Source of the DNA: Bacteroidales bacterium
Lineage (GTDB): Bacteria; Bacteroidota; Bacteroidia; Bacteroidales; WCHB1-69
DNA: 64,000 bases
Assembly: GCA_017535665.1 (NCBI GenBank)
Contig: JAFXTS010000021.1
Span: 4,796-68,795, forward strand
Reading direction: 5' to 3'
Shown here: positions 14,613-28,290 of the stretch, piece by piece
Layout: each line of letters opens with the position of its first letter
How positions within the stretch are numbered: position 1 is the first letter of the stretch
Made by a program: the position numbers and the translations under genes
Notes under the pieces: generated by a model
Databases searched by the model: none
The model's input: the letters and a program-made list of their open reading frames with translations, nothing else
Told to the model about the DNA's origin: nothing

Positions 14613-15431
14613 ATGAAGAAAAAACGTGTCCTTCACATCATTCTAATCGTGGCTGTCATCTCCTTGATTAGCTGGCTGCTTTACTATCTGGTTTGGTTTC
14701 TCTTTGACCCGGATCTGAGAATGGAATTCTACAAAGGCTGGCCGTTCCATCCGCTGGAAATGCTGCTTGACTATGCGGTGTGCTGTTTTGTAACCTTTAC
14801 GGCCACCATCTATTACCTGCGTTCCTACGACCGGGCCGAACGTGAGCGCGACCGATACAAGCTGCTGGCGTTGGAGAACCAAATTAACCCGCATTTCGTG
14901 TTCAACAACTTCAGCACGCTGGCCGAACTGATAGAGGTGGATCCGAAAAAGGCCACTACATACCTGATGAATCTTTCCAACGTCTATCGCTATGCTCTCT
15001 CTCACCTTGAACACGACAAAGTGAGCCTGCAGGACGAACTGACCTACTTGCGACAGTATCTGCAGTTGCTTAGCGAGCGTTTTGGCGATACCATTCGTGT
15101 GGATATTTCTCCAGAAGTGGCTGACGGTCAAGGATGTGTGCCGCCTGCTGTGTTGCAGATGATGGTGGAGAACGCCATCAAGCACAACGAGCACACCGCC
15201 GCACACCCGCTGAACATTGACATCTTTGGCGACGGCCGGAACATTACTGTACGCAACAACAAACGCCTCGTGCCTATGCCCGAATCCACACAAATTGGCA
15301 TACACAACATCGAGGAACGATACCGCCTGCTTACCCGCCAGAAGGTGCGGATTGAAGATGGTTGCGACAGCTATGCGATAACGATACCGGTGATAGTTGA
15401 AAACGGAAAATTGAAAACTGAAAGTTTATGA
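14613..15431 (+). CDS. Sensor histidine kinase, LytS/YehU-type (His_kinase plus HATPase)
   Basis: 272 aa. Two N-terminal TM helices, H-box region QINPHFVFNNFSTL and N-box MVENAIKHN. It overlaps the downstream regulator gene by 4 nt. Confidence 0.85.
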   Translation: MKKKRVLHIILIVAVISLISWLLYYLVWFLFDPDLRMEFYKGWPFHPLEMLLDYAVCCFVTFTATIYYLRSYDRAERERDRYKLLALENQINPHFVFNNFSTLAELIEVDPKKATTYLMNLSNVYRYALSHLEHDKVSLQDELTYLRQYLQLLSERFGDTIRVDISPEVADGQGCVPPAVLQMMVENAIKHNEHTAAHPLNIDIFGDGRNITVRNNKRLVPMPESTQIGIHNIEERYRLLTRQKVRIEDGCDSYAITIPVIVENGKLKTESL

Positions 15432-16177
15432 GAATTTTAATTATAGAAGATGAGCAGAACAATGCCGAACGTTTGGTGAGGTTGGTGAAGGATGTTCGCC
15501 CCGATGCCGAGATTGTGGCTGTGTTGGCAAGCAATGCGGAGGTGGAGGATTTCTTCAGGCAAGCAGACAACACAGCGGATGTGATATTGTCGGACATCCG
15601 GTTGGGCGATGGCTTGAGTTTCGTAGGGTTGAAGTCCGCCCCGCAGTCGCTGCCCGTGATTTTTACCACCGCCTACGATCAATATGCGCTGCAAGCCTTC
15701 AAATACAACGGTCTCGACTATCTGCTGAAACCCATTGATGCCGAGGAGCTTCGGCAAGCATTGGACAAGGTGGTTGTGGAACACACCACCACCACGGAAG
15801 ACATCCGGCAGCTGTTAGCCTCTGTGGGCAGCATCCGTTACCGTGAGCGTTTCCTCATTGCCTTTCGCGACACCTTCCACGTGGTATCCGTAGGCGAGAT
15901 GAACCACGTGGGTATCAGCGACGGCATCGTTCGTCTCTACACCACCGGCGGCAAATCGCACCTGCTGAACATGACACTGGACGAACTGGAGAAGCAACTT
16001 GACCCCGAGCGGTTTATGCGTGTCAACCGGCAGTATATTGTCAGTGCGGCAGCGGTGGAGAAGCTGTCAGCCCATTTTCTCGGCAAGATGCGCGTCCACC
16101 TCAAAGGCTATCCCGACACGGAGGTCATCGTGAGCCGCGAGAAGGTGTCGGCGGTAAAGCGCTGGCTGGACTTTTGA
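15428..16177 (+). CDS. LytTR-family DNA-binding response regulator
   Basis: 249 aa. The receiver domain (MRILIIEDE ... VILSDIRLGDG ... DYLLKP) is followed by a LytTR-like C-terminus (FMRVNRQYIV). Confidence 0.9.
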   Translation: MRILIIEDEQNNAERLVRLVKDVRPDAEIVAVLASNAEVEDFFRQADNTADVILSDIRLGDGLSFVGLKSAPQSLPVIFTTAYDQYALQAFKYNGLDYLLKPIDAEELRQALDKVVVEHTTTTEDIRQLLASVGSIRYRERFLIAFRDTFHVVSVGEMNHVGISDGIVRLYTTGGKSHLLNMTLDELEKQLDPERFMRVNRQYIVSAAAVEKLSAHFLGKMRVHLKGYPDTEVIVSREKVSAVKRWLDF

Positions 16178-16184
16178 AAGTTAA

Positions 16185-16211
16185 TAATTGATAATTGACA
16201 ATTAACAATTA
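16185..16211. promoter_or_regulatory. AT-rich 27-bp palindrome between the response regulator and the efflux adaptor gene (possible operator or weak terminator)
   Basis: The arms taattgataattg and caattaacaatta flank a central a, with one mismatch between arms. It lies 8 nt after the regulator stop. Confidence 0.3.
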
Positions 16212-16343
16212 CAAGTTATAGTGGCTGTTACAGCATTTGTCGTTGGTGGCTATGACGGTTCACCATTGATTTTTCCCGCTTCATTTATTATTACATTTTT
16301 GCTTCGCCAATAAATCCTCACTTTTGCATCCCAATTTATAAGG

Positions 16344-17438
16344 ATGTACAAAATGAAGAGGATGATATGGATATTGTTGCCGATGGTGATGCTTTCGTGT
16401 GCATCGCGGCAGCAGAAAGAGGGCGATGAGCCTAAACACTACGATTTGCTGACTATCACTGCCAGCGACCACGAGCTTACCACTGAATATGCTGCTTCGC
16501 TGAAAGGACAGCAGGATATTCGCATCATTCCTCGTATAGAAGGCTATCTGCAAGGCATTTATGTGAAGGAGGGCGAACAGGTGAAAGAGGGACAGTTGTT
16601 GTTTAAAGTGGATGCGGCGACCTATAGGGCAGCGGTTGAGGCCGCCAACGCCAATGTGCAGCAGATGAGGGCGGCCTTGGAAAAGGCACAATTGGAATAC
16701 GAAGGCAAGCAGAAACTCCGTGCAAAGAATGTCATCTCTAACTATGAACTGGCATCCTCAAAAAGCGACCTCGCTGTAGCAAAAGCCAATCTTGCAGCAG
16801 CTCAAGCCGCACTAACTTCTGCACGCAACGACCTTAGTTATACGGAATTGCGCAGCCCGTCGGACGGGGTTGTCGGAAGAATACGCTATCGCAAGGGTGA
16901 TTTTGTGACTCCCACCATGCAGGATGGCCTCACCATTGTGGCCGACAACCGCCACATCCGCGCTTACTTCTCTATGAGCGAAACCGTTTTGATGAATTAC
17001 CTAAGCGAATACAAGACGATGGAAGCGGCTGTCAATCAGATGCCTGAAGTGAAACTGCTCCCCCCGAACGGTCAATTCTACAGTCAAACGGGTCGTGTGG
17101 AGAGCATCAGCGGGATTGTGGACGAGGCAACGGGGGCGGTCTCCGTGTGCGCCCTCTTCGACAACCGCGACGGCATTCTTCTCAGCGGCGGTACAGGCAA
17201 AATCGTAATGCCTGCTGTTAAGAAAAACGCCATCGTCATACCGCAGGAGGCCACTTACGAGATTCAGGACAAAGTGTATGTGTATAAGGTCGTTGATGGC
17301 AAGACGGTCTCCACCATCGTGCAAGTGGCATCGCATAACAACGGCAAGGAGTACGTGGTCATCAGCGGCCTCCATGAGGGCGATGTGATTGTTGCCAAAG
17401 GCGCGGGGTTTGTGGAGGAAGGAGAAAGAGTGAGGTGA
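16344..17438 (+). CDS. RND efflux periplasmic adaptor (membrane fusion protein)
   Basis: 364 aa. Lipoprotein-like N-terminus (MVMLSCAS), a lipoyl/hairpin architecture (IPRIEGYLQGIYVKEGEQVKEGQLLFKVD ... coiled coil ... ELRSPSDGVVG) and a beta-barrel C-terminus. Confidence 0.9.
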   Translation: MYKMKRMIWILLPMVMLSCASRQQKEGDEPKHYDLLTITASDHELTTEYAASLKGQQDIRIIPRIEGYLQGIYVKEGEQVKEGQLLFKVDAATYRAAVEAANANVQQMRAALEKAQLEYEGKQKLRAKNVISNYELASSKSDLAVAKANLAAAQAALTSARNDLSYTELRSPSDGVVGRIRYRKGDFVTPTMQDGLTIVADNRHIRAYFSMSETVLMNYLSEYKTMEAAVNQMPEVKLLPPNGQFYSQTGRVESISGIVDEATGAVSVCALFDNRDGILLSGGTGKIVMPAVKKNAIVIPQEATYEIQDKVYVYKVVDGKTVSTIVQVASHNNGKEYVVISGLHEGDVIVAKGAGFVEEGERVR

Positions 17439-17469
17439 AAATCAGATTATGTTTGTAGCTAACTATATT

Positions 17470-18750
17470 TTATAGTTTTACTGCCTTTAATTGACCAAAT
17501 TGATTCATGTCCATTTCCATTTGGTAGAACTCAATACCTTTTTCTATCATATTCTCTTGCAAATCGTATGTGATAAGTTTCTGGTCCTTCAGTATTTTTC
17601 TAATAGTATCCTTGTCCGATTGAGCGCATTTCACCCCAAAATATACAGCTTCAATACAATTAGGAATATCTATCTGCTTATGTTTTCCTGTGCCATCAAT
17701 GTCAAAATAAAGATAACGCAACTCGTTTTCATATTCCCAGTTTTTACTTTTCAAAAAGAAAGAATCCTCAACTGATATGGAATCCTTATTTGAATATTTT
17801 GACATGTCATTTTCAGAATATTTAACGTCTTTGAAATATGAAATAATCCTATTGCTGCTTGTTATCATCTTGGTCATTTTAGCATTAAAATGATATTTAA
17901 TGCAAACTCCTTTATGGAAATCTGCATAATGTGCCCACATTAATTCGTTTAAATATTCATCTTTATCACAACCTTGTTTATGTAAATAAATAGGATTTCC
18001 ATCCTCATTGGTTTTCGGTTCACCTTGTTCACTTATTTCTGGTAATAATTTTATTTTTCTAGAGAAGCAAGCAATCTTCAGACTGTCGTTGTATGCTTTG
18101 AGGATTAATTTGTTAATTTCATCATCGTACATGTTTAGTAGAACAAGAATAGGGCAATCAAATGGATCATTAAATTCTGAAGGAGATGAGATGTTTAATT
18201 GTTCGTTTATTAGGGATTTATAGAGAAATTCGTTACATTTTCTAAAACCATATGCTGACAACCCTGCATATGATTTATGATTTGATTGTTCCAAGAGAAA
18301 AAAAAGAGATTTCTTAAAGGCTAACAGCGCATCATCCTCATATCTTGTTCCCAATTTATGCCAACATAAACCAAGATTAAAGTATAAAGCTTCTTTTATT
18401 GATATTTTATAACGACAATCTTTGTCTCTATCATAAGTATCAATAAGTTCCTTCAGGTGGATAACTTCGCTTTCTTTGCATGGAAGTTGTTCTATAGCTG
18501 CAGAGTATTTAATCAGTGCTTGCCCTAATTTTGACGCTCCGTCTTCATTGAATCTGTTAGCCCTTCCTAAATAAGGACACAAACGCAACCATTCTTCGCT
18601 AAAAGACCGTTTTGCTTTTTCTGCATTAGTCTTATTAATCTGCTGATAATTATTTATATACGATTCTATTTCAAACTCGTATTTTCTCAGTTTACATTTT
18701 CTTATTGAATCTAAAATTACTATAATCAAACTTTTCATCCTATATATCAT
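17470..18750 (-). CDS. DUF2971-family protein with an approx. 170-aa helical N-terminal extension
   Basis: 426 aa. DUF2971 signature motifs as I recall them: SEFNDPFDCP, LMWAHYADFHKGVCIKYHF and KSKNWEYENELRYLY. Its ATG overlaps the stop of the upstream gene (ATGA). Very low GC. Confidence 0.7.
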   Translation of the reverse strand: MIYRMKSLIIVILDSIRKCKLRKYEFEIESYINNYQQINKTNAEKAKRSFSEEWLRLCPYLGRANRFNEDGASKLGQALIKYSAAIEQLPCKESEVIHLKELIDTYDRDKDCRYKISIKEALYFNLGLCWHKLGTRYEDDALLAFKKSLFFLLEQSNHKSYAGLSAYGFRKCNEFLYKSLINEQLNISSPSEFNDPFDCPILVLLNMYDDEINKLILKAYNDSLKIACFSRKIKLLPEISEQGEPKTNEDGNPIYLHKQGCDKDEYLNELMWAHYADFHKGVCIKYHFNAKMTKMITSSNRIISYFKDVKYSENDMSKYSNKDSISVEDSFFLKSKNWEYENELRYLYFDIDGTGKHKQIDIPNCIEAVYFGVKCAQSDKDTIRKILKDQKLITYDLQENMIEKGIEFYQMEMDMNQFGQLKAVKL

Positions 18751-19526
18751 TTTGTTTTACAATCCTTCTCCCCTAGAATCTTCTCATTACCATCTTTAAC
18801 GTAAGGCAACATTTTCTCTGCCAACTGAAACATCTGTGTTGAAAACAGAGTTGGAAATCCATTTTCCTCAGAATAGTTGGCTTTGGCATTAGCGATATTT
18901 TGCTCAATCATCAAAATTGCCTTTCGGGGTTTTAATCCGCCTCTGACTTGTGTGTCTGCCCAAGTCTTAAATGCAGAACTTATTTTGTTCTTATCGTCAG
19001 GAATATCAAAACCTATACATTTGTCTGCTTTTTCAGCGTAATACAACCACACTTCAAAACAAGAGTTGCTTATAATTAATTGTATGCCGTTTTCATCGCA
19101 TTCAGATCGCATCTCCGTAAGAAATTGCTCAAAATGGTCAACATCGGTAAGCAACCAAAAACTGTCAGGATTATCCACACTTGCAGATTCCCGATATTCT
19201 TTCACCTTTGCTACCGCAAAGCTTGTTATTAATGGTTTGCCTCCTTTTTCGAAATTTGGTTCAGCAAAGAAATCAACCTTAATATCTGTATATAACGAGG
19301 GGTTTCGTTTGATTAGGTAAAAATAGTTCTTCTCCCTTTCGGTACCGCCAGAAAAAACGATTATGTATGCTTTAGGTTGAAGTGTGGCTTCAGGTTTTAT
19401 ATATGCTGACTGTGGAACAGACAATGCTATGTCATTGTAAGCTATTGTAGTCAATTTATTGTCTGCAACGACTTCCAATGGCTCTTTTTCAGGATTACCC
19501 TTCTGATAATATCTGTCGTCTGCCAT
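18747..19526 (-). CDS. RloB-like (Toprim-like) protein
   Basis: 259 aa. RloB-type motifs: IIVFSGGTEREKNYF (the usual CEGE is degenerate), LLTDVDHF (DxD) and IISNSCFEVWLYYA. Its start codon directly abuts the ATPase stop (TAAATG). Confidence 0.7.
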   Translation of the reverse strand: MADDRYYQKGNPEKEPLEVVADNKLTTIAYNDIALSVPQSAYIKPEATLQPKAYIIVFSGGTEREKNYFYLIKRNPSLYTDIKVDFFAEPNFEKGGKPLITSFAVAKVKEYRESASVDNPDSFWLLTDVDHFEQFLTEMRSECDENGIQLIISNSCFEVWLYYAEKADKCIGFDIPDDKNKISSAFKTWADTQVRGGLKPRKAILMIEQNIANAKANYSEENGFPTLFSTQMFQLAEKMLPYVKDGNEKILGEKDCKTK

Positions 19527-20822
19527 TTATTCTATGATTGAGATTTGTGGCACTCCGCCATATCGACCTTCAAGATACCCTTTCTCTATATTCATGGTGT
19601 TGTGTATCTTATAGTCATTAAACGAATGCATTTTAGAATTGCCATTCTCCTTTTCAACCTTCCACAACTCATCTGGGCGAATTAAATCCTGTTGGTCTTG
19701 GAATAAGGTCAGATGAGTAGTACAGATGAGTTGTCCTTTTGATTCACTATTGAAGAAGTATTTCAGCAGATTATAGATGAGATTAGGATGCATACTATTT
19801 TCAACCTCATCAATAACCACAACTTTTCCTCTACTGGCATTATATAAAGCTGGTATCAGTGTGAGCAAGCGTACGGTTCCATCGGATTGACTGGCAATAT
19901 TCATTTTCTTTTTATAGCCACCAATGCCTAATTGTTCAAATAGAAATTCTTGAACAATTTGTTCTCCATTTTTCATAGTAATGTTGAAGTTGTTTCGGTT
20001 GTTGGAAAAGGACGTTAATCCGGTATGCTCACTTATAGGGTTCCTGAGAAGCATATGTTGTAGTTCTGAGGCGTTTTTCTTATTCGACATCCACTTTTCA
20101 ATAGGTGTTTCTCCCACCTTGAGAGAATCCGTAATATGCAAACGCGAAAGCAAGATGTTGGCATAATCAAGTAATTGCTTGTTATTCGACATCATGTCAA
20201 TCAAAAAAGGTGTTTGAGAGTTGATGGTGATGATATCAAAATCATTAAGAAACCAATCATAGGCAATTTGAATGTGTTTTTCATTAATCACAGGGTACTT
20301 GGTGTTTAAACAGATTATCGAAGAACCATTGTTCTTCTTCAACAAATCTGTTGAAAGCTTGTTGTCGGTAGTTGGAGTCACAACATCACCAACCCTCTCA
20401 AATATCAAAGTGTCATCCTGTTCGCCAAGACCAGACAACAACAGCCGTTCTCTAATGTTATTCTTTTGAGAATGCTGAATTTCCAATTGGTAAATATAAT
20501 AATTACATTTGGTGAAAAATTCAATTTCAATTTTCATTGGTTCATTATTGGTGCGAACCAATTGAAAGAAAAAGTCATTCAAATCAATGATATTCAGAAA
20601 ATTGTCCAATGTCACAAATGACTTCAAGAATTGCAACACCTTTACAAAATTTGATTTTCCCGAACCATTAGCCCCGTATATCAAAGCGTGCTTGAGCAGT
20701 GGGATTTTTTCATTTGTATTGATATGATTGGCAAAAATCTCACGTTTCGGATTCGGAAACATATCGAATGTAGTCTTCTCATAAAAAGACAACATATTCT
20801 GAATGGCGATTCTCAATAACAT
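19527..20822 (-). CDS. ABC/OLD-type AAA ATPase (AAA_15/AAA_21-like; AbiLi/RloA-like)
   Basis: 431 aa. Walker A GANGSGKSN, signature-like SDGTVRLL, Walker B VVVIDEVENSMHP, H-loop LICTTH, and a C-terminal YLEGRYGGVP tail. Confidence 0.8.
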   Translation of the reverse strand: MLLRIAIQNMLSFYEKTTFDMFPNPKREIFANHINTNEKIPLLKHALIYGANGSGKSNFVKVLQFLKSFVTLDNFLNIIDLNDFFFQLVRTNNEPMKIEIEFFTKCNYYIYQLEIQHSQKNNIRERLLLSGLGEQDDTLIFERVGDVVTPTTDNKLSTDLLKKNNGSSIICLNTKYPVINEKHIQIAYDWFLNDFDIITINSQTPFLIDMMSNNKQLLDYANILLSRLHITDSLKVGETPIEKWMSNKKNASELQHMLLRNPISEHTGLTSFSNNRNNFNITMKNGEQIVQEFLFEQLGIGGYKKKMNIASQSDGTVRLLTLIPALYNASRGKVVVIDEVENSMHPNLIYNLLKYFFNSESKGQLICTTHLTLFQDQQDLIRPDELWKVEKENGNSKMHSFNDYKIHNTMNIEKGYLEGRYGGVPQISIIE

Positions 20823-20850
20823 AACAACGGTATTTCATTTATATGGGCAG

Positions 20851-20858
20851 CAAAGATA
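20851..20858 (-). promoter_or_regulatory. -7 box (TATCTTTG) for the ATPase-RloB-DUF2971 operon
   Basis: The reverse complement of caaagata is TATCTTTG. It lies 29 nt upstream of the ATG at 20822. Confidence 0.5.
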
Positions 20859-20878
20859 CAATTTTTTCTTTATATAGC

Positions 20879-20904
20879 GTGAAAACTTCACGTGAAATTT
20901 TCAC
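20879..20904. promoter_or_regulatory. Tandem inverted repeats GTGAA-N3-TTCAC x2 (candidate operator)
   Basis: gtgaaaacttcacgtgaaattttcac lies over the expected -33 region of the cassette promoter. Confidence 0.35.
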
Positions 20905-21057
20905 AAAATACATAACTTTATGACAATCAGTATGTTTTATTGCTATATTATTCACTCTCTTCTTAAAACTTTTGTCAGTACTCAATTCTTCCTCCACTTC
21001 ACCCACCAATATTCCCGCTTCACCCACTTTCCCGCAACGCCATCGGCACAATCCCTA

Positions 21058-21065
21058 TATTTTTG
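21058..21065 (+). promoter_or_regulatory. -7 box (TATTTTTG) immediately upstream of the RND pump gene
   Basis: tatttttg lies 25 nt before the ATG at 21090. Confidence 0.5.
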
Positions 21066-21089
21066 CGCAAAATTTGATAAGGAATTGCT

Positions 21090-24000
21090 ATGAATACCAA
21101 AACCTTCATCCATCGCCCGCTCCTTTCGATGGTCATCAGCGTGTTCATCGTGCTGTTGGGGGTGATTTCGTTGCTGTCGCTGCCGGTGGAGCGCTATCCC
21201 GACATTGCACCGCCGGCCATCTACGTGTGGGCGAGCTATCCGGGCGCAAGTGCCGAAACGGTGCAGAAGAGCGTGGTGATGCCTCTGGAAGAGGCCATCA
21301 ACGGGGTGGAGGGGATGACCTACATGACCTCGTCGGCCAGCAACGGCTCGGCCAGCATCACCATCTACTTCGAGCAGGGTGCCAATGCCGATATGGCCGC
21401 TGTGAACGTGCAGAACCGCGTTATCCAGGCACAAGCGCAGCTGCCCGCCGAGGTGCTGCAGACGGGCGTGGCGACCGAGAAACGGCAACCCGGCCAGCTT
21501 CGCATCATCGCGTTAGAGAGCCCCAACGGCACCTACGACGAAAACTTCCTCAGCAACTATTTCTACAACAACCTGCGTCCCGCCCTGCTGCGCATCAAGG
21601 GCGTGGGCAAGGTGGAGGTATGGGGCTCACAATATGCCCTGCGCATCTGGCTTAAGCCCGACGTGATGGCGCGTCACAAGCTGATGCCGAGCGACATATC
21701 GGCTGTGCTGGCCGAGCAAAACATCGAGGCCTCGGTCGGCTCGCTGGGCAGCAATTCCGACAATGTGTTTCAATATATGTTGCGCTACACGGGACGCAAA
21801 ACTGAGGTGTCGGAGTTCGAGAACCTTGTGATAGCCTCCCTCCCTACCGGCGAGGAATTGCTGCTGAAGGATGTGGCGGATGTGGAGCTGGGACAGTCGG
21901 ATTACGACTACATCAACAGTATCAACGGGCATCCGGGCGTGATGGGCTCGGTGAGCCAGATGGCCGGCTCCAACGCCACCAAAATCAACCTTGAGATCGA
22001 CAAACTGCTGACCGAAACCGAGAAATCGCTGCCCAAGGACGTGAAAATCGTCACCTTCGACAACACCAACGACTTCCTCTTCGCCTCCATCCGCGAGGTG
22101 ATACTGACGCTCGTCATTGCCATTGTGCTGGTGCTGGTTGTGGTGCTCTTCTTTCTGCAGGATTTTCGTGCTACGCTGGTTCCCGCCATGGGCATCCTCG
22201 TCTCACTCATCGGCACTTTCGCGTTTATGAAAGTAGCAGGATTTTCTGTCAACCTGCTGACTCTGTTTGCTTTGGTGCTGGTCATCGGCACCGTGGTCGA
22301 TGACTCCATCGTGGTAGTGGAGGCGGTGAAAGCCAAGATTGACGAGGGGTGCACCTCCGCCCGTAAAGCCTCGGAGGATGCCATGAATGGTCTTTCCGTC
22401 ACGCTGTTCACCACCACGCTGGTCTTTATGGTCATCTTCATCCCCGTGGCGTTTATGGGCGGCACCACCGGCATCTTCTTCAAACAGTTCGGTCTGACGA
22501 TGGCCGTCGCGGTGGGCATTTCGTTGATTAATGCGCTGACATTGTCACCGGCATTGTGCACATTGATGTTGAAACCATCGTCGGTGGAGACGTTGCGTGC
22601 AACGTCTCTACAAAAATCGGGGATATCGTCCCTGCAATCAAGGATTCGTACCGCATACCAAACCACCTTCACCGCCCTGTTAAAACATTACGCCAACATG
22701 GTCCGCTGGTTTCTCCGTCGCAAATGGGTGGCTACTATCGGTATTGTTGTCGCCATTGTGTTGATGGCGGTGTTGTTCAAGGTGGTGCCCACGGGCTTTA
22801 TCCCCAACGAGGATATGGGCACGCTCTTCGTGGACCTCACACCGCCGCCGGGCTATACGGCCAACAAGACTTTCGATATGATGAACCGCACTTGCGACAA
22901 GATCCGCGAGTTGCCAGAGGTTCAAGATGTCGGCGGCGTGGTGGGCGTCGGAGCAGGTGCCAACATCTTCGTCCAGCTGAAACCGTGGAAAGAACGCCGA
23001 GGAAAAGCGCACTCCTCTTCCACCATTATGGAGAAAATAGACGAGATTTTGTCCCAGGAAACGGAGGCGCAGAGCTTCGTCTCGGAACCGGGCATGGTGG
23101 AGGGTTATGGCGGCAACGGCGGCTTTGAGTTCTCGGTGCAGGGGCGCATCGGACAGGATGCCAAGACGCTGCACGCAGTCACCACCCGCTTTACGGAAAA
23201 ACTCAGCGAGCGTCCGGAAATCGGCGAGGTCTATTCGAGCTACGATGTCAACTATCCGCAGTACCGCGTGGATTTGGATGTGGCGAGGTGCAAGAAGATG
23301 GGGGTTGCTCCCTCCACCGTGCTCAACGAGATGGGCGCTTACTTGGGCGGCGACTACATCTCCAATTTCAACAAATACAACAAGGTGTATCAGGTGGATT
23401 TGCAGCTGAAGCCGTCCGACCGCAACCGCCCCGAATCGCTGACGAGCCTCTTCGTGCGTTCCGAAAACGGCGAGATGATGCCCATCAACCAATTCGTCTC
23501 CCTCACCAAGGAGTATATGCCGCAGTCAATCAACAGTTTCAATATGTTCCCCTGCATCGATGTTTCGGGCAGCGTGGCAGAGGGCAGCAGTTCGGGCCGT
23601 GCCATCAAGGCCATCCAGGAGACCGCCGCGAAGGAGTTGCCCGTGGGCTACAGCATTGAGTTTGGCGGCGTCACCCGCGAGGAGAGCCAGACATCTGGCA
23701 GAGTGATTTTCATCTTCCTGATATGCATCGTATTCGCCTATCTCGTAATGGTGGCACTTTACGAAAGCCTCCTTATCCCGCTGGCGGTGATGCTGTCGGT
23801 GCCATTCGGTCTGGCGGGTAGTCTGCTGTTTGCCAAACTGTTTGGCGTGGAAAACAACATCTATATGCAGATCGGAATGGTGATGCTGGTGGGACTGCTG
23901 TCAAAGACAGCCATCTTGCTCACCGAATATGCTTCGCAGGCACGAAAGGAAGGGAGGTCACTTGCCCAGGCGGCGCTCAGCAGCGCCAAAGTGCGATTGC

Positions 24001-24266
24001 GTCCCATCCTGATGACCTCGCTCACCATGATTATCGGTATGCTGCCCCTGATGTTCGCCTCGGGCGTGGGCGCCAACGGCAGCCGAACCATTGGGGTCTG
24101 TGTGGTCGGAGGAATGCTGTTCGGCACGCTCGGCTTGCTGCTCACCGTGCCGGTGTTGTTTGTCGTGTTTCAAAGGCTGCAGGAGCGTGTTAGTCCCGCT
24201 ACCATTCCCCTATCCGCAAAACAAAAAAAACGGAAGTGTGAGAAAATGAATCGTAAATCCAAATAA
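21090..24266 (+). CDS. RND multidrug efflux permease (AcrB/BmeB-like)
   Basis: 1058 aa with 12-TM HAE1 architecture. The N-terminus FIHRPLLSMVISVFIVLLG and the periplasmic porter domains are typical of AcrB-family pumps. Confidence 0.95.
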   Translation: MNTKTFIHRPLLSMVISVFIVLLGVISLLSLPVERYPDIAPPAIYVWASYPGASAETVQKSVVMPLEEAINGVEGMTYMTSSASNGSASITIYFEQGANADMAAVNVQNRVIQAQAQLPAEVLQTGVATEKRQPGQLRIIALESPNGTYDENFLSNYFYNNLRPALLRIKGVGKVEVWGSQYALRIWLKPDVMARHKLMPSDISAVLAEQNIEASVGSLGSNSDNVFQYMLRYTGRKTEVSEFENLVIASLPTGEELLLKDVADVELGQSDYDYINSINGHPGVMGSVSQMAGSNATKINLEIDKLLTETEKSLPKDVKIVTFDNTNDFLFASIREVILTLVIAIVLVLVVVLFFLQDFRATLVPAMGILVSLIGTFAFMKVAGFSVNLLTLFALVLVIGTVVDDSIVVVEAVKAKIDEGCTSARKASEDAMNGLSVTLFTTTLVFMVIFIPVAFMGGTTGIFFKQFGLTMAVAVGISLINALTLSPALCTLMLKPSSVETLRATSLQKSGISSLQSRIRTAYQTTFTALLKHYANMVRWFLRRKWVATIGIVVAIVLMAVLFKVVPTGFIPNEDMGTLFVDLTPPPGYTANKTFDMMNRTCDKIRELPEVQDVGGVVGVGAGANIFVQLKPWKERRGKAHSSSTIMEKIDEILSQETEAQSFVSEPGMVEGYGGNGGFEFSVQGRIGQDAKTLHAVTTRFTEKLSERPEIGEVYSSYDVNYPQYRVDLDVARCKKMGVAPSTVLNEMGAYLGGDYISNFNKYNKVYQVDLQLKPSDRNRPESLTSLFVRSENGEMMPINQFVSLTKEYMPQSINSFNMFPCIDVSGSVAEGSSSGRAIKAIQETAAKELPVGYSIEFGGVTREESQTSGRVIFIFLICIVFAYLVMVALYESLLIPLAVMLSVPFGLAGSLLFAKLFGVENNIYMQIGMVMLVGLLSKTAILLTEYASQARKEGRSLAQAALSSAKVRLRPILMTSLTMIIGMLPLMFASGVGANGSRTIGVCVVGGMLFGTLGLLLTVPVLFVVFQRLQERVSPATIPLSAKQKKRKCEKMNRKSK
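22584..22611. repeat. 28-nt palindromic element copy embedded in frame in the RND pump CDS
   Basis: gtggagacgttgcgtgcaacgtctctac, followed by caaaaa, differs by 2 nt from the intergenic copy at 32804-32831. It is translated as VETLRATSLQKS, starting at codon 499. Confidence 0.8.
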
Positions 24267-24272
24267 AAATCA

Positions 24273-24280
24273 TATTTTTG
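24273..24280 (+). promoter_or_regulatory. -7 box (TATTTTTG) for the R-M cassette
   Basis: tatttttg lies 23 nt upstream of the ATG at 24303. Confidence 0.5.
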
Positions 24281-24302
24281 CAGCCGTTAAAATGAAGAAT
24301 AT

Positions 24303-25169
24303 ATGAAATCTTTTGCAGATTATAAGAAAGATGCGCCCAACTGGATAACTATGGCAAATGGTGAGTTTTATCCAGATATTTTGGAAAGTGCATGTGAATT
24401 ATACAAACCTGTACTTGTTCTGTTCGAACAATTGATTAAGACATCGGAAAGTTCCGAGAGACTGCTCCGGGAGATAATGGATGTTCATCAGCAATGGATG
24501 AGAATTCAACTGTGCCGTGTTTTTCGGAAATATGTTTCGCCACAGACGCCAGTAGAAATGCTAAAAAACAAATCTAAATTGACAATGATATGTGCTAATT
24601 ATGGCAAATATTTCCGTACCATTGACAGGGTTCAATCAGCATTTTCATCACGACCGATGCCTGACGAAGCGTTATGTGCATTGCTTTGGGAGTATAAAGA
24701 CCGTGGCAAAAAAGGATACGACTTGACGGAACGCTTTTTTGAATTGTTCCAATCTGCTTTCCCAAAGTTAAGGATTGAAGGACCCAAAAGAGCAGGTGCT
24801 GATGTCTTAATGAAGTCTGTTTTCCCCGATTATCCCAATCCTACAAGACCCGTTGATTTTGTCATCAAAAATGAAAAGGATGATATCTTGGCGATTGGAC
24901 TTGCAAGATATGATGGCGACCGTGGGGGTGCGCAAGAAGATGACAGAACCGGTGGTTATGCAAATTGCGCGAAAGAAATCCTGCAATATACCAAGGCAAA
25001 AAGGCTTTCTACAAAGGTCATTTTCGTAAACGATGGCCCAGGTTTGCTTTTGGGATCTATGTGGAATGACTACTCCTCGCTAGAAAAGATTGATGCCAAC
25101 AGAATAATCGTCCTAACTCTCCGAATGTTTAACACAAGGCTCACCGCCAAATGGCTTAAGAGCAAATAA
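24303..25169 (+). CDS. Putative type II restriction endonuclease (assigned by context only)
   Basis: 288 aa. I could not place a family motif with confidence. It sits 8 nt upstream of, and is co-oriented with, a DNA methyltransferase, and GC is low relative to the flanks. Confidence 0.4.
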   Translation: MKSFADYKKDAPNWITMANGEFYPDILESACELYKPVLVLFEQLIKTSESSERLLREIMDVHQQWMRIQLCRVFRKYVSPQTPVEMLKNKSKLTMICANYGKYFRTIDRVQSAFSSRPMPDEALCALLWEYKDRGKKGYDLTERFFELFQSAFPKLRIEGPKRAGADVLMKSVFPDYPNPTRPVDFVIKNEKDDILAIGLARYDGDRGGAQEDDRTGGYANCAKEILQYTKAKRLSTKVIFVNDGPGLLLGSMWNDYSSLEKIDANRIIVLTLRMFNTRLTAKWLKSK

Positions 25170-25177
25170 AAAGTATT

Positions 25178-26392
25178 ATGGCAGTAAGCGTAACATCAAC
25201 AACCGGTCGGACAGTGAACCTAAAGTTCGCGCCCCATACTGAAATAAATTTCCAGCAGACGGCATGGAATGAGGGGGATGGCATTAAACGGCTATATCAT
25301 GCCGATAATATTGACGTTCTTAATGCTCTGACAAACGACGAGGAGGTGTGTGGGAAAGTGACACTTATTTATATTGACCCACCATATAACACAGGCGGAG
25401 TGTTTGAGACCAGAGATTTCAAGCACGCGTATGACGATTGTTTTTCAACAGAATCATATCTTGAATTTATGCGTGTTAGGCTTGTACTGATGCACAAACT
25501 TCTCTCCGATGAAGGGTCTATTTATGTCCATCTTGATAGCAATATGGTATTTCACGTCAAAATACTCATGGATGATATTTTTGGCATTCGCAATTTCAAG
25601 GGTATGATTACCAGAAAAAAATGCAAATCCAAAAACTTTACGCGAAAAACCTACGGCAATATTTCAGATTATATACTTTTTTACTCCAAAACAGACTATC
25701 CAGTGTGGAATCGTCCCTTCGAGGAATGGGGCGATGACAAGATACTAAAAGAGTACCCTTATGTCGAGGAAGGAACGGGGCGTCGTTATAAGAAAGTTCC
25801 CATACATGCCCCTGGTACCCGTAATGGCTCTACCGGCACTGCTTGGCGTGGAATGATGCCTCCTGAGGGAAAGCATTGGCAGTTTACACCTGACAAACTT
25901 GACGAAATGGATGCCAATGGGGAGATTTACTGGTCTTCAAACGGTAATCCTCGACGTAAGGTTTATCTTGACCAAAGTGAAGGCTTGCCTGTACAAGACA
26001 TATGGCTGGATTATATTGACACAAATAATCAAAACACACTTATCACAGGTTATCCAACCGAAAAAAATATTGAAATGCTTAAGCGCATCATCGAAACTTC
26101 TTCACGTCCTGGTGATTTGGTGTTGGATTGTTTTGCCGGCTCTGGAACAACACTTGTCGCTGCTGATGAGCTTGGCCGGCAATGGATAGGCGTTGACATT
26201 GGCGATGAAGCAATTGAAACAATAAAAGAACGATTTAAGAACGGAAGTAAGCCCATGGGAGATTATGTCAAAAAAAAGAAATTGTCACCTATGCCGATGA
26301 TGTCTTTGTTTGACAACGTCGTGGAAAATGAATGTCCTACAATAATCACAAGTTTACGGAGAATAACATACGATGTTTTTGTAGAAGTGTAA
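25178..26392 (+). CDS. DNA methyltransferase, beta-class (motif IV before motif I), probably N6-adenine
   Basis: 404 aa. Motif IV is IYIDPPYNTGG near residue 65 and motif I is LVLDCFAGSGTTLVAA near residue 315. Confidence 0.85.
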   Translation: MAVSVTSTTGRTVNLKFAPHTEINFQQTAWNEGDGIKRLYHADNIDVLNALTNDEEVCGKVTLIYIDPPYNTGGVFETRDFKHAYDDCFSTESYLEFMRVRLVLMHKLLSDEGSIYVHLDSNMVFHVKILMDDIFGIRNFKGMITRKKCKSKNFTRKTYGNISDYILFYSKTDYPVWNRPFEEWGDDKILKEYPYVEEGTGRRYKKVPIHAPGTRNGSTGTAWRGMMPPEGKHWQFTPDKLDEMDANGEIYWSSNGNPRRKVYLDQSEGLPVQDIWLDYIDTNNQNTLITGYPTEKNIEMLKRIIETSSRPGDLVLDCFAGSGTTLVAADELGRQWIGVDIGDEAIETIKERFKNGSKPMGDYVKKKKLSPMPMMSLFDNVVENECPTIITSLRRITYDVFVEV

Positions 26393-26618
26393 TATCCGCA
26401 CGACAAATGAACATCCCCATTTAAATCGATCATATTTTCCATCGTTAGGTAGACCAAACAAATCTGGGAACGACTGAAATGATCCTCTACACCCAAGGAC
26501 TTTGGGAAATAGTTGTCGCGGAGTGTAAATGTTCCAATCTGTTTTGAGGGGGGCAACAAGAAGGAGTAAACACAAATTTCAAGAAAAAAACGTACGTGAA
26601 CAATAAACACTATAGACA

Positions 26619-27962
26619 ATGAAGATGCTTCCGATTCTGTTGACAACGCTACTTGCGATCGGCTGCTCTGTGCAGAAGCCGGTGGTGGAGGAAGCCGTCA
26701 GGCCCAATCTTCTTGAACCGGACATCATACTGGTTGACAGTATGTCTATGCGCTCGTGGCAGGAGATTTTTGTGGACGAACCCTTGCAGTCGCTGATTGC
26801 GGAAGCCCTTGACAGCAACGCCGATGTGCGTACCATGCAGCTCAACGTGGAACAGGCCGCCATCCAGATGCGGGTGGCGAAGCTTTCCTATCTGCCGTCG
26901 TTTGCGCTGTCGCCATCGGGAACTGTTTCGAAGGCACAGAGCAGCACCGCCACCTACACTTACGAACTGCCGCTCACGATGAGCTGGGAATTGAATCTCG
27001 GCGGACAAATGGCGGCACAGAAAGCAGCAACGAAATACCAGTGGATGAACGCACAGGAGCAACTCAAATATACACGGCTACAGCTCATTGCTTCCGTTGC
27101 CAACGCTTACTACACGCTCATTATGCTGGATGAGCAGCTGCGGCTTTCGGAACAGAGCGTGCAACTGCAACGGGAAACGCTGGAAACCATCACGGCAATG
27201 AAGGAGGTGGGCATGATGAACGAATTGGCTGTCAATCAAGCCGAAACAGAATTGCAGGTCACGGTTGCTTCGGTGAGTGATCTGCGCCTGCAACGCGAGA
27301 AGACCGAACGGGCACTGAATGTGTTGTTGAGCCGCACGACTCAGAATGTTCAATATTCCACTTACGCGGATGTCAAAGACATCAATATGGATGCGGATGC
27401 GCCTGTCAGTTTGGAGGCACTGGCGATGCGTCCGGATGTGCGTAGCGCGGAATATCAGCTGCGGGCCTCGTTCAGCAACACCAAAGTGGCGCGCTCGCAG
27501 TTCTACCCGTCGCTGAAACTTACCGCCAGCGGCTCGTGGACCAACAACATCGGCGAGATTGTCAATCCTGCCAAACTGTTGCTAAACCTGATTGGCGGAC
27601 TTACACAGCCGTTGTTTCAGATGGGACAGATCAAGGCGAACTTCGAGATTGCTAAGTTGCAGCAGGAGCAGTCGCAAATTGCTTTCGAGCAGGCACTGTT
27701 GCAGGCGGGCAGCGAAGTCGCCAATGCTTTGTCGGAATGCCATGCCGCACAACAAAAACTGCAAGTCCGCGAGGCGCAGGTGGAGGCCAGCCAAAAAGCG
27801 GTGGAGAACGTACGCGAACTGATGCAGCATTCCTCATCCGTCACCTACCTGGAAGTGCTCACCGCCCAGTCGTCGTGGCTCAATGCCCAGTTGCAGCAGA
27901 CTGCCGACTGGTTGGAGTTACAGCAGGGGAGAATCAATCTGTACAAGGCATTATGCCGATAA
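26619..27962 (+). CDS. Efflux outer-membrane factor (TolC/NodT-family lipoprotein)
   Basis: 447 aa. Lipobox LLAIGCS. It has the duplicated OEP helical-repeat architecture typical of RND outer-membrane subunits. Confidence 0.9.
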   Translation: MKMLPILLTTLLAIGCSVQKPVVEEAVRPNLLEPDIILVDSMSMRSWQEIFVDEPLQSLIAEALDSNADVRTMQLNVEQAAIQMRVAKLSYLPSFALSPSGTVSKAQSSTATYTYELPLTMSWELNLGGQMAAQKAATKYQWMNAQEQLKYTRLQLIASVANAYYTLIMLDEQLRLSEQSVQLQRETLETITAMKEVGMMNELAVNQAETELQVTVASVSDLRLQREKTERALNVLLSRTTQNVQYSTYADVKDINMDADAPVSLEALAMRPDVRSAEYQLRASFSNTKVARSQFYPSLKLTASGSWTNNIGEIVNPAKLLLNLIGGLTQPLFQMGQIKANFEIAKLQQEQSQIAFEQALLQAGSEVANALSECHAAQQKLQVREAQVEASQKAVENVRELMQHSSSVTYLEVLTAQSSWLNAQLQQTADWLELQQGRINLYKALCR

Positions 27963-28290
27963 AATCGAATGTCACATTGGCCTCGTTGCACACGGATGAC
28001 CGCGAGGAGTTCATACTCAACAATCGAAGGACGTTCAAGTATGGAGCCACGGAGGAAAAGGCGGAGAAGCAAGAGCAAAGCCAAGTTTGCTTGAGCTTTG
28101 CCGAGTCGCGACGAAATTCGGGCGAAACTCATTTTGGCTTGCGCGATGACCCTTTTGAAGAAGAAGTCGAGCGCAGTCCCCTCCAGAACAACTTTCAACG
28201 GGAGAAATCCTTAAAAAAAGATAGACACTGATAATCAAACGATTGTCGGTGTCTTTCTTTGATTTTAGGGAACCACGTTCCCGTTTCAAG

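Follow-up and report, generated by a model that had tools for sequence, protein, structure and literature searches.

A low-GC defence islet in a Bacteroidales efflux operon is likely to be AbiL joined stepwise by a solo DUF2971 gene

We analysed a 64,000-nucleotide stretch of contig JAFXTS010000021.1 from a gut-type Bacteroidales bacterium ("the window"; all positions are within it). The window contains an RND efflux operon whose adaptor and pump genes are separated by a 3.66-kb block of three packed minus-strand genes: abiLi, which encodes an ATPase; abiLii, which encodes a candidate RloB-family nuclease; and a gene for a protein with a DUF2971 domain. We think it likely that this islet consists of two independently functioning modules (AbiL and a solo DUF2971 gene) that were joined stepwise at a single junction of the efflux operon. 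The original prediction, made from the sequence and its open reading frames (ORFs), was that these genes form a defence cassette of an uncharacterised kind. The first part holds, as the proteins match the AbiLi, AbiLii, and PDC-S31 models of PADLOC. The second part does not, as the components map to AbiL and to PDC-S31, and a DUF2971 protein, Aristaios, has been validated alone. Thus, the view of the trio as a new obligatory three-gene system is not supported.

Sister lineages show the junction in three states. We gathered orthologues of the efflux operon by a homology search with the adaptor protein (MFP), which is 83-90% identical in these lineages; no exact match to the MFP protein of the window is on record. 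In loci L133 and L134 (MFP 90% identical) and L135-L137 (88%), the junction is empty, with only 12-26 bp between the MFP and pump genes. Nucleotide homology with the window (blastn) ends at 17431 for L133 and L134 or at 17422 for L135-L137 and resumes at 21091; L133 holds 29 bp instead of the block. The missing block matches the bounds that had been predicted for the cassette (17439-21089). In loci L031-L035 and L138-L140 (MFP 83% identical), the junction contains AbiL only: abiLi and abiLii are intact, and just the DUF2971 gene is missing (Table 1). The L138-L140 sequence is 86% identical to the window block at the nucleotide level. Among the lineages that share this junction, the full trio is confined to that of the window.

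The most likely order of events, judging from these alignments, is an empty site, then AbiL, and then AbiL plus DUF2971. Deletion of the DUF2971 gene in both of the AbiL-only lineages is formally possible, but it is less parsimonious because the gene has a distinct GC content and solo relatives. At both edges of the DUF2971 indel there is a 4-bp TGAT (17441-17445 and 18747-18751, minus strand), which occurs once at the unoccupied L031 site. Microhomology and a target duplication are both conceivable sources, and the repeat is too short to decide between them.

The block is foreign by composition. Its GC content is 31-38% (0.311 for the DUF2971 gene, 0.377 for abiLii, and 0.356 for abiLi), as compared to 0.521 for the MFP gene and 0.563 for the pump gene on its flanks and 0.50 for the whole window, so the sharp GC contrast that had been reported is real (0.31-0.38 versus 0.52-0.56). 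The ORF list also agrees with the original prediction of three tightly packed minus-strand genes (Table 1), and the stop codon of the ATPase gene (TAA, 19527-19529) directly abuts the ATG of the RloB gene (19526). As had been stated, there is no integrase, regulator, or toxin-antitoxin gene in the block. Within the block, the family scans covered these three genes; its other ORFs of at least 60 amino acids comprise shadows (61-94 amino acids) that run antisense or out of frame, and one 70-amino-acid minus-strand ORF (20839..21051) in the spacer 5' of abiLi.

Table 1. Positions of the islet, its genes, and the surrounding features in the window
Feature	Position	Strand	Evidence or remark
Low-GC defence islet	17432..21090	.	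From the MFP stop to the RND pump start codon; blastn against empty-site relatives, GC
1.3-kb indel, DUF2971 gene only	17440..18760	.	About 24 bp instead in L031-L035 and L138-L140 (blastn, junction sequences)
TPR-like helical domain (amino acids 1-155) plus DUF2971 domain, 426 amino acids (422 if start is M5, 18738)	17470..18750	-	Pfam, PADLOC, alignments, AlphaFold2
abiLii, candidate RloB-family Toprim-like nuclease, 259 amino acids	18747..19526	-	Pfam RloB, PADLOC AbiLii, alignment
abiLi, ABC/SMC-type ATPase (AAA_21/AAA_15), 431 amino acids	19527..20822	-	PADLOC AbiLi, Pfam, motifs
Bacteroidota-type -7 motif TATCTTTG (TAnnTTTG)	20851..20858	-	Lies 28 nt 5' of the abiLi start codon (ATG)
Histidine kinase, LytTR-type two-component pair	14613-15431		Upstream of the efflux genes
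Response regulator, LytTR-type pair	15428-16177		
RND periplasmic adaptor (MFP), left flank	16344..17438	+	Pfam HlyD_D23, HlyD_3
RND pump (AcrB family), right flank	21090..24266	+	Pfam ACR_tran 2.7e-288
Second insertion, GC about 0.41, pump to OEP	24173..26660	+	L133 has 123 bp here
Outer-membrane efflux protein (OEP), last operon gene	26619..27962	+	Pfam OEP 1.4e-44

The first two genes look like a complete AbiL. The three proteins were scanned against Pfam, PADLOC, and NCBIfam, and the Pfam matches to AAA_21, AAA_15, RloB, and DUF2971 are all above the gathering scores. The best PADLOC match of abiLi, by far, is to AbiLi (PDLC02335, 1.4e-64, 216 bits, amino acids 1-428), and Pfam identifies AAA_21 (3.7e-28) and AAA_15 (1.8e-10). 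The protein has a Walker A motif (G50-S57, with K56), a signature-like SQSDG (311-315), a Walker B motif (VVVIDE, 334-339, with D338-E339), and H370. abiLii matches RloB in Pfam (9.5e-16, 59 bits versus a cut-off of 31.5) and AbiLii in PADLOC (PDLC02337, 4.2e-14). Across 24 aligned homologues with 37-86% identity, none of its Toprim-type residues (E65, D128-V-D130, and E158) varies. The two genes are adjacent and co-oriented, and an ATPase partner lies alongside RloB in 74 of 80 further metagenome RloB loci. So far as sequence can tell, genes 1 and 2 have every feature of AbiL, with catalytic motifs intact. The original prediction of an AbiL- or RloAB-type pair that resembles a split OLD-family nuclease is borne out by both Pfam and PADLOC. 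Sequence and profile searches of the PDB with AbiLi, AbiLii, the RloB profile, and the DUF2971 profile returned nothing relevant.

As in AbiL of the Lactococcus lactis plasmid pND861 and RloA/RloB of Campylobacter, a co-oriented AAA_21/AAA_15 ATPase gene is followed by an RloB Toprim-like gene whose start abuts the stop. Unlike the lactococcal system, the window copy is chromosomal, in a member of the Bacteroidales, and within an efflux operon, with a third gene appended. The similarity of the window proteins to the lactococcal ones is at the level of profiles only, and the window pair is known from its sequence alone; the abortive-infection phenotype of AbiL has been shown for the lactococcal system only (Deng et al. 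1999, cited in PMC13064643). AbiL has been grouped with PARIS as an ABC-ATPase plus Toprim system (PMC11464382, PMC10440598, PMC13064643). Like PARIS (AriA/AriB), the window pair combines an ABC ATPase with a separate Toprim nuclease, but the nuclease is RloB (PF13707) rather than DUF4435/AriB, and the ATPase is a much poorer match to the AriA models than to the AbiLi model (2e-29 versus 1.4e-64). We rejected membership in PARIS because gene 2 matches only AbiLii and RloB, with no match to AriB or DUF4435 in Pfam or PADLOC.

The third gene belongs to a family that usually stands alone. Its Pfam match to DUF2971 covers amino acids 271-346 (3.8e-9, 38 bits versus a cut-off of 22), and all five PADLOC models for PDC-S31 match it (the best is PDLC04990, 4.6e-34, amino acids 167-411). 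The invariant motifs of the protein are FNDPFD (193-198), WAHYAD (272-277, with Y275), and YENELR (340-345, which includes the ExE of E341-N-E343). In an AlphaFold2 model, the N-terminal 155 residues are all-helical and the C-terminal domain is mixed alpha/beta (pLDDT of 77 for the full-length protein and 72.7 for the C-terminal model). Foldseek with the N-terminal domain gave only tetratricopeptide-repeat (TPR) matches, and these were weak (best probability 0.92, E 0.25). Besides these, the Foldseek searches of PDB and BFVD gave one unnamed phage protein (E 6.6e-4).

Like PDC-S31 and Aristaios, the window protein has a DUF2971 domain, and this family is usually found as a lone gene in defence-rich neighbourhoods. 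Aristaios, a single 316-amino-acid DUF2971 protein, protects Lactococcus alone and with an abortive-infection phenotype (PMC11381338), and it interferes with phage transcription (PMC13064643). It is the only DUF2971 protein whose anti-phage activity has been validated (PMC11381338); the PDC entries are candidates. Unlike Aristaios, the window protein has an additional TPR-like N-terminus of about 155 amino acids and its gene is probably part of the AbiL transcription unit; the two are related by their domain, not by direct sequence comparison. Published comparisons of profiles and structures put DUF2971 close to DarT, AbiGi, and Tox-ART-HYD1, and it has been predicted to be a DarT/AbiGi-like ADP-ribosyltransferase (ART) in which a Tyr and an ExE motif are conserved (PMC12522546). 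Like DarT, the window protein has such residues (the invariant WAHYAD and Y-E341-N-E343); unlike DarT, it has no DarG-like antitoxin gene at its locus. Of the motifs that mark the DarT-like HYE clade of ADP-ribosyltransferases, the motif II Tyr (Y275) and the motif III ExE are present and invariant, and the claim for the fold itself comes from PMC12522546 and PMC11381338. The window protein has no DarT match in Pfam or PADLOC, and a Pfam search of the isolated domains at E <= 10 found DUF2971 and no ART family, with no match for the N-terminal domain.

The original prediction also pointed to a long helical N-terminal extension in the third protein. Full-length homologues of about 400 amino acids (45-66% identity) are common in Bacteroidota, and they cover 94% of the protein, including the helical domain. 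As the solo homologues share the extension, it is not an adaptation to AbiL.

If the three genes formed an obligatory system, as was originally suggested, then DUF2971 and AbiL should be found together elsewhere, but conserved linkage is absent whichever side we start from. Starting from AbiL, the closest pairs to that of the window lack a DUF2971 gene: these are L031-L035 (AbiLi 93.5% and AbiLii 86% identical), followed by L036 (89% and 72%) and L038-L040 (74% and 63%). None of the four nearest AbiL clusters has a DUF2971 gene beside it. In the wider sample of 80 metagenome RloB loci (48 of which have at least 1.2 kb of downstream sequence), a DUF2971 gene is present at only two, and each has a different arrangement. 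In L056, the gene encodes a 49%-identical homologue and sits upstream of abiLi, across a 680-bp gap; in L118, a short DUF2971 protein of 280 amino acids starts 2 nt after a distant abiLii. No relative with AbiL at the orthologous site has the third gene. The other genes that follow AbiL pairs in the same direction are unrelated neighbours (ETF, PdxJ, SMODS, and a type IIG restriction-modification enzyme). We also considered whether co-directional ORFs of about 285 amino acids behind some distant pairs (L122, L123, L131, and L132) might be hidden DUF2971 genes, but Pfam identifies them as ETF, SMODS, and PdxJ.

Starting from DUF2971, there were no AbiLi or AbiLii homologues within 7 kb of the DUF2971 homologues in any of 23 species-representative genomes (tblastn), and neither RloB nor AAA_21 is among the Pfam families listed for the two neighbours on either side. 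The expectation of linkage to ATPase-RloB pairs thus fails. The commonest neighbours are restriction-modification genes. The two nearest clusters of DUF2971 homologues (P0003 at 66% identity and P0012 at 57%) lie in other defence-rich settings, one with nSTAND3 and the other with SNF2 and SMC-like ATPase genes, and without RloB. Among plasmids, 234 have homologues of the C-terminal domain (188 of them from Klebsiella, mostly conjugative). All of these homologues match only amino acids 164-426 and lack the helical N-terminal domain of the Bacteroidota subfamily, and an RloB homologue was detectable on none of these plasmids.

Many of the DUF2971 homologues are encoded singly, by a gene whose GC content is lower than that of its flanks. 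In L001, L012, L014, L017-L019, and other loci, there is a single TPR-DUF2971 ORF with a GC content of 0.30-0.35 between flanks at 0.45-0.55, with no mobility gene nearby. Twenty of the solo homologues share no flanking motif (60 bp upstream and 80 bp downstream were compared). The closest homologue (66% identity; L024-L028, 6001-7203) has on one side an Hsp70-family gene and then ORFs of 200 and 43 amino acids, and on the other side unannotated ORFs of 383 and 229 amino acids and then an nSTAND3 NTPase gene; this may be a defence island.

How is the third gene expressed? With 53 matches versus 31.7 +/- 5.6 expected, TAnnTTTG, the promoter motif of Bacteroidota, is overrepresented in the window. 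The block contains just one on the minus strand, upstream of abiLi, which we infer to be a promoter. At least five of the DUF2971 homologues are each preceded by their own TAnnTTTG motif. The window's DUF2971 gene has none, so it is probably co-transcribed with AbiL by read-through. In terms of PDC-S31 as a single-gene system, the homologues are solo at 23 genome loci and in two metagenome clusters, and the window copy lies 0-8 nt behind abiLii with no promoter motif of its own. If the gene is a passenger that is transcribed from the AbiL promoter, then the tight packing is explained without any functional dependence. A scan for sigma-70 promoters was uninformative (20 promoter-like sites versus 14.8 expected), and a terminator scan found no terminator after the cassette.

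The packing may also be a little less tight than it first appeared. The overlap of the RloB stop with a DUF2971 start (ATGA) had been noted and is present in the sequence, but this start is doubtful. The ATGAT of the overlap is also present in L031, which has AbiL only, and the alternative start at M5 (18738) is used by the database gene call (P0001, 422 amino acids) and by the homologues P0017 and P0022, so that the true start is likely M5. The real spacing between abiLii and the DUF2971 gene may be 8 nt, which is tight all the same.

An alternative explanation is that the trio is an integrated three-component system, in which AbiLi senses the phage and controls both the RloB nuclease and the DUF2971 protein, or in which the TPR-DUF2971 protein provides sensor input to AbiL. 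A single promoter motif serves all three genes, gene 3 starts 0-8 nt after gene 2, and the arrangement is stable: all 10 of the places listed for the identical ATPase have the trio in the same arrangement (16 contigs read). Also, an independent AbiLii-DUF2971 junction is just as tight (L118, 2 nt), the two co-occur a third time in L056, and ABC ATPases of the AbiL/PARIS clade pair with many kinds of effector domains (PMC11464382). Nevertheless, this seems unlikely to us, because AbiL pairs that are 86-93% identical are intact at the same site without the third gene; because DUF2971 proteins, along with their N-terminal domain, are overwhelmingly encoded by solo genes that have their own promoters; because the three juxtapositions differ in their arrangement and in the subtype of DUF2971; and because the Lactococcus DUF2971 protein works alone (PMC11381338).

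A related idea is that AbiL-type ABC ATPases recurrently recruit a DUF2971 (ADP-ribosyltransferase-like) enzyme as a second effector. The product would be a composite in which one sensor drives two toxic outputs, or else a pair of layers, each closing the phage escape routes left by the other. As a DUF2971 gene was captured both here and, independently, 2 nt behind abiLii in L118, the juxtaposition may not be neutral. We view this idea as improbable.

Several points weigh against the two-module explanation that we prefer. The activities of the window proteins, and of their homologues in Bacteroidota, are predictions only, and the mechanism of AbiL is still an unproven proposal, even in Lactococcus. 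For the DUF2971 protein, Foldseek searches of PDB and BFVD at E < 0.1 matched neither the full-length AlphaFold2 model nor the moderate-confidence model of the C-terminal domain to any ART structure. Co-transcription and a spacing of at most 8 nt are equally expected of a true three-gene operon. Finally, the two further independent juxtapositions of AbiL with DUF2971, and particularly the 2-nt gap in L118, leave room for cooperation.

With two independently functioning modules, we propose that the islet would work as follows. In PARIS, the nuclease is kept sequestered by the ATPase until a phage trigger frees it (PMC11464382), and the target is tRNA-Lys; the window's AbiL is likened to PARIS by its architecture. 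By analogy, the AbiLi ATPase would hold the AbiLii nuclease inactive and would release or activate it upon a phage cue. The freed nuclease would then cut nucleic acid, and the infection would be aborted. The TPR-DUF2971 protein would act on its own, with the helical repeat domain as a sensor or autoinhibitor and the DUF2971 core as a toxic effector that would use NAD+ to modify a nucleic acid or protein target. Its gene would have landed directly behind abiLii and be transcribed as a passenger of AbiL.

Could the third gene serve no function at present, as a passenger that is silent or decaying, so that only AbiL is active? It has no separate promoter motif, and it is absent from the sister lineages. 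However, its ORF is full length and retains every position that is invariant in alignments of 22 and 40 sequences; all 10 places listed for the identical ATPase include the gene, and the exact protein is found again on two additional contigs; and read-through from abiLii would express it. We consider a silent gene to be the least probable of the explanations that we weighed.

Another possibility is that the cassette is not primarily anti-phage, but is instead an addiction module or selfish stabiliser, or else an RloAB-type accessory of a neighbouring restriction-modification module. RloA and RloB were first noticed within type I restriction-modification loci (PMC10440598, PMC13064643), a restriction-modification module lies 3.3 kb away in the same operon, and AAA-ATPase/Toprim pairs act as toxin-antitoxin pairs (PMC10440598). 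This seems very unlikely because that module is a separate insertion that is absent from the AbiL-only loci L031 and L138, and because the best matches of the pair are to AbiL models. Also, toxin-antitoxin activity and abortive infection are compatible.

The module in question is a second insertion into the efflux operon (Table 1). It contains a 288-amino-acid ORF (24303-25169) that has no match in Pfam or PHROG, with a TAnnTTTG motif 22 nt upstream, and an N6/N4 DNA methyltransferase gene (25178-26392). Together, these two genes probably make up a restriction-modification module of type II. There are strain variants of this insertion in which the methyltransferase has 344 or 404 amino acids and its partner has 272 or 288.

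The islet reveals no novel type of immune system. Rather, it adds Bacteroidales examples of two catalogued but mechanistically unsolved defence families (AbiL/RloB and DUF2971/PDC-S31), and it shows how a single defence ORF can enter an existing defence operon without bringing a promoter. The empty, AbiL, and AbiL+DUF2971 sites form a clean natural series and can serve as comparators in tests of cooperation between stacked defence genes. The use of an RND efflux operon as a hotspot for cargo may also be relevant to defence hotspots and to gene flow in gut Bacteroidales.

The host operon (kinase, regulator, MFP, pump, and OEP; 14613-27962) lies on a chromosomal stretch, as the rest of the window has housekeeping genes and type IX secretion system proteins (Por_Secre_tail), and it belongs to a member of the Bacteroidales. 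All three of its intergenic junctions hold low-GC cargo that differs across the sister lineages. The junctions are empty in L133 and L134. L135-L137 have DUF1016/YhcG and Eco57I-type methylase genes between the regulator and MFP genes, in some cases together with an AAA_15/21 pair. L138-L140 have MBOAT at that junction and AbiL between MFP and pump, and their OEP is replaced by Fic/HipA. The window has AbiL+DUF2971 between MFP and pump and the restriction-modification module between pump and OEP. There is no recombinase gene, and insertion within the operon for a three-part machine is unusual.

In L031-L035, the efflux operon is decaying, with internal deletions in the kinase (window 14702-14983), MFP (16646-17016), and pump (21670-22129) genes. 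The pump gene is split into several ORFs and the segment with the restriction-modification module and OEP (24173-27967) is missing, while the AbiL genes are intact.

Finally, the pump gene of the window has a TAnnTTTG motif at 21058-21065, which is 24 nt 5' of its ATG and within the inserted block. In the empty-site relatives, the pump starts with GTG, 12-26 bp past the MFP stop. The insertion may have given the pump a new promoter and start context.

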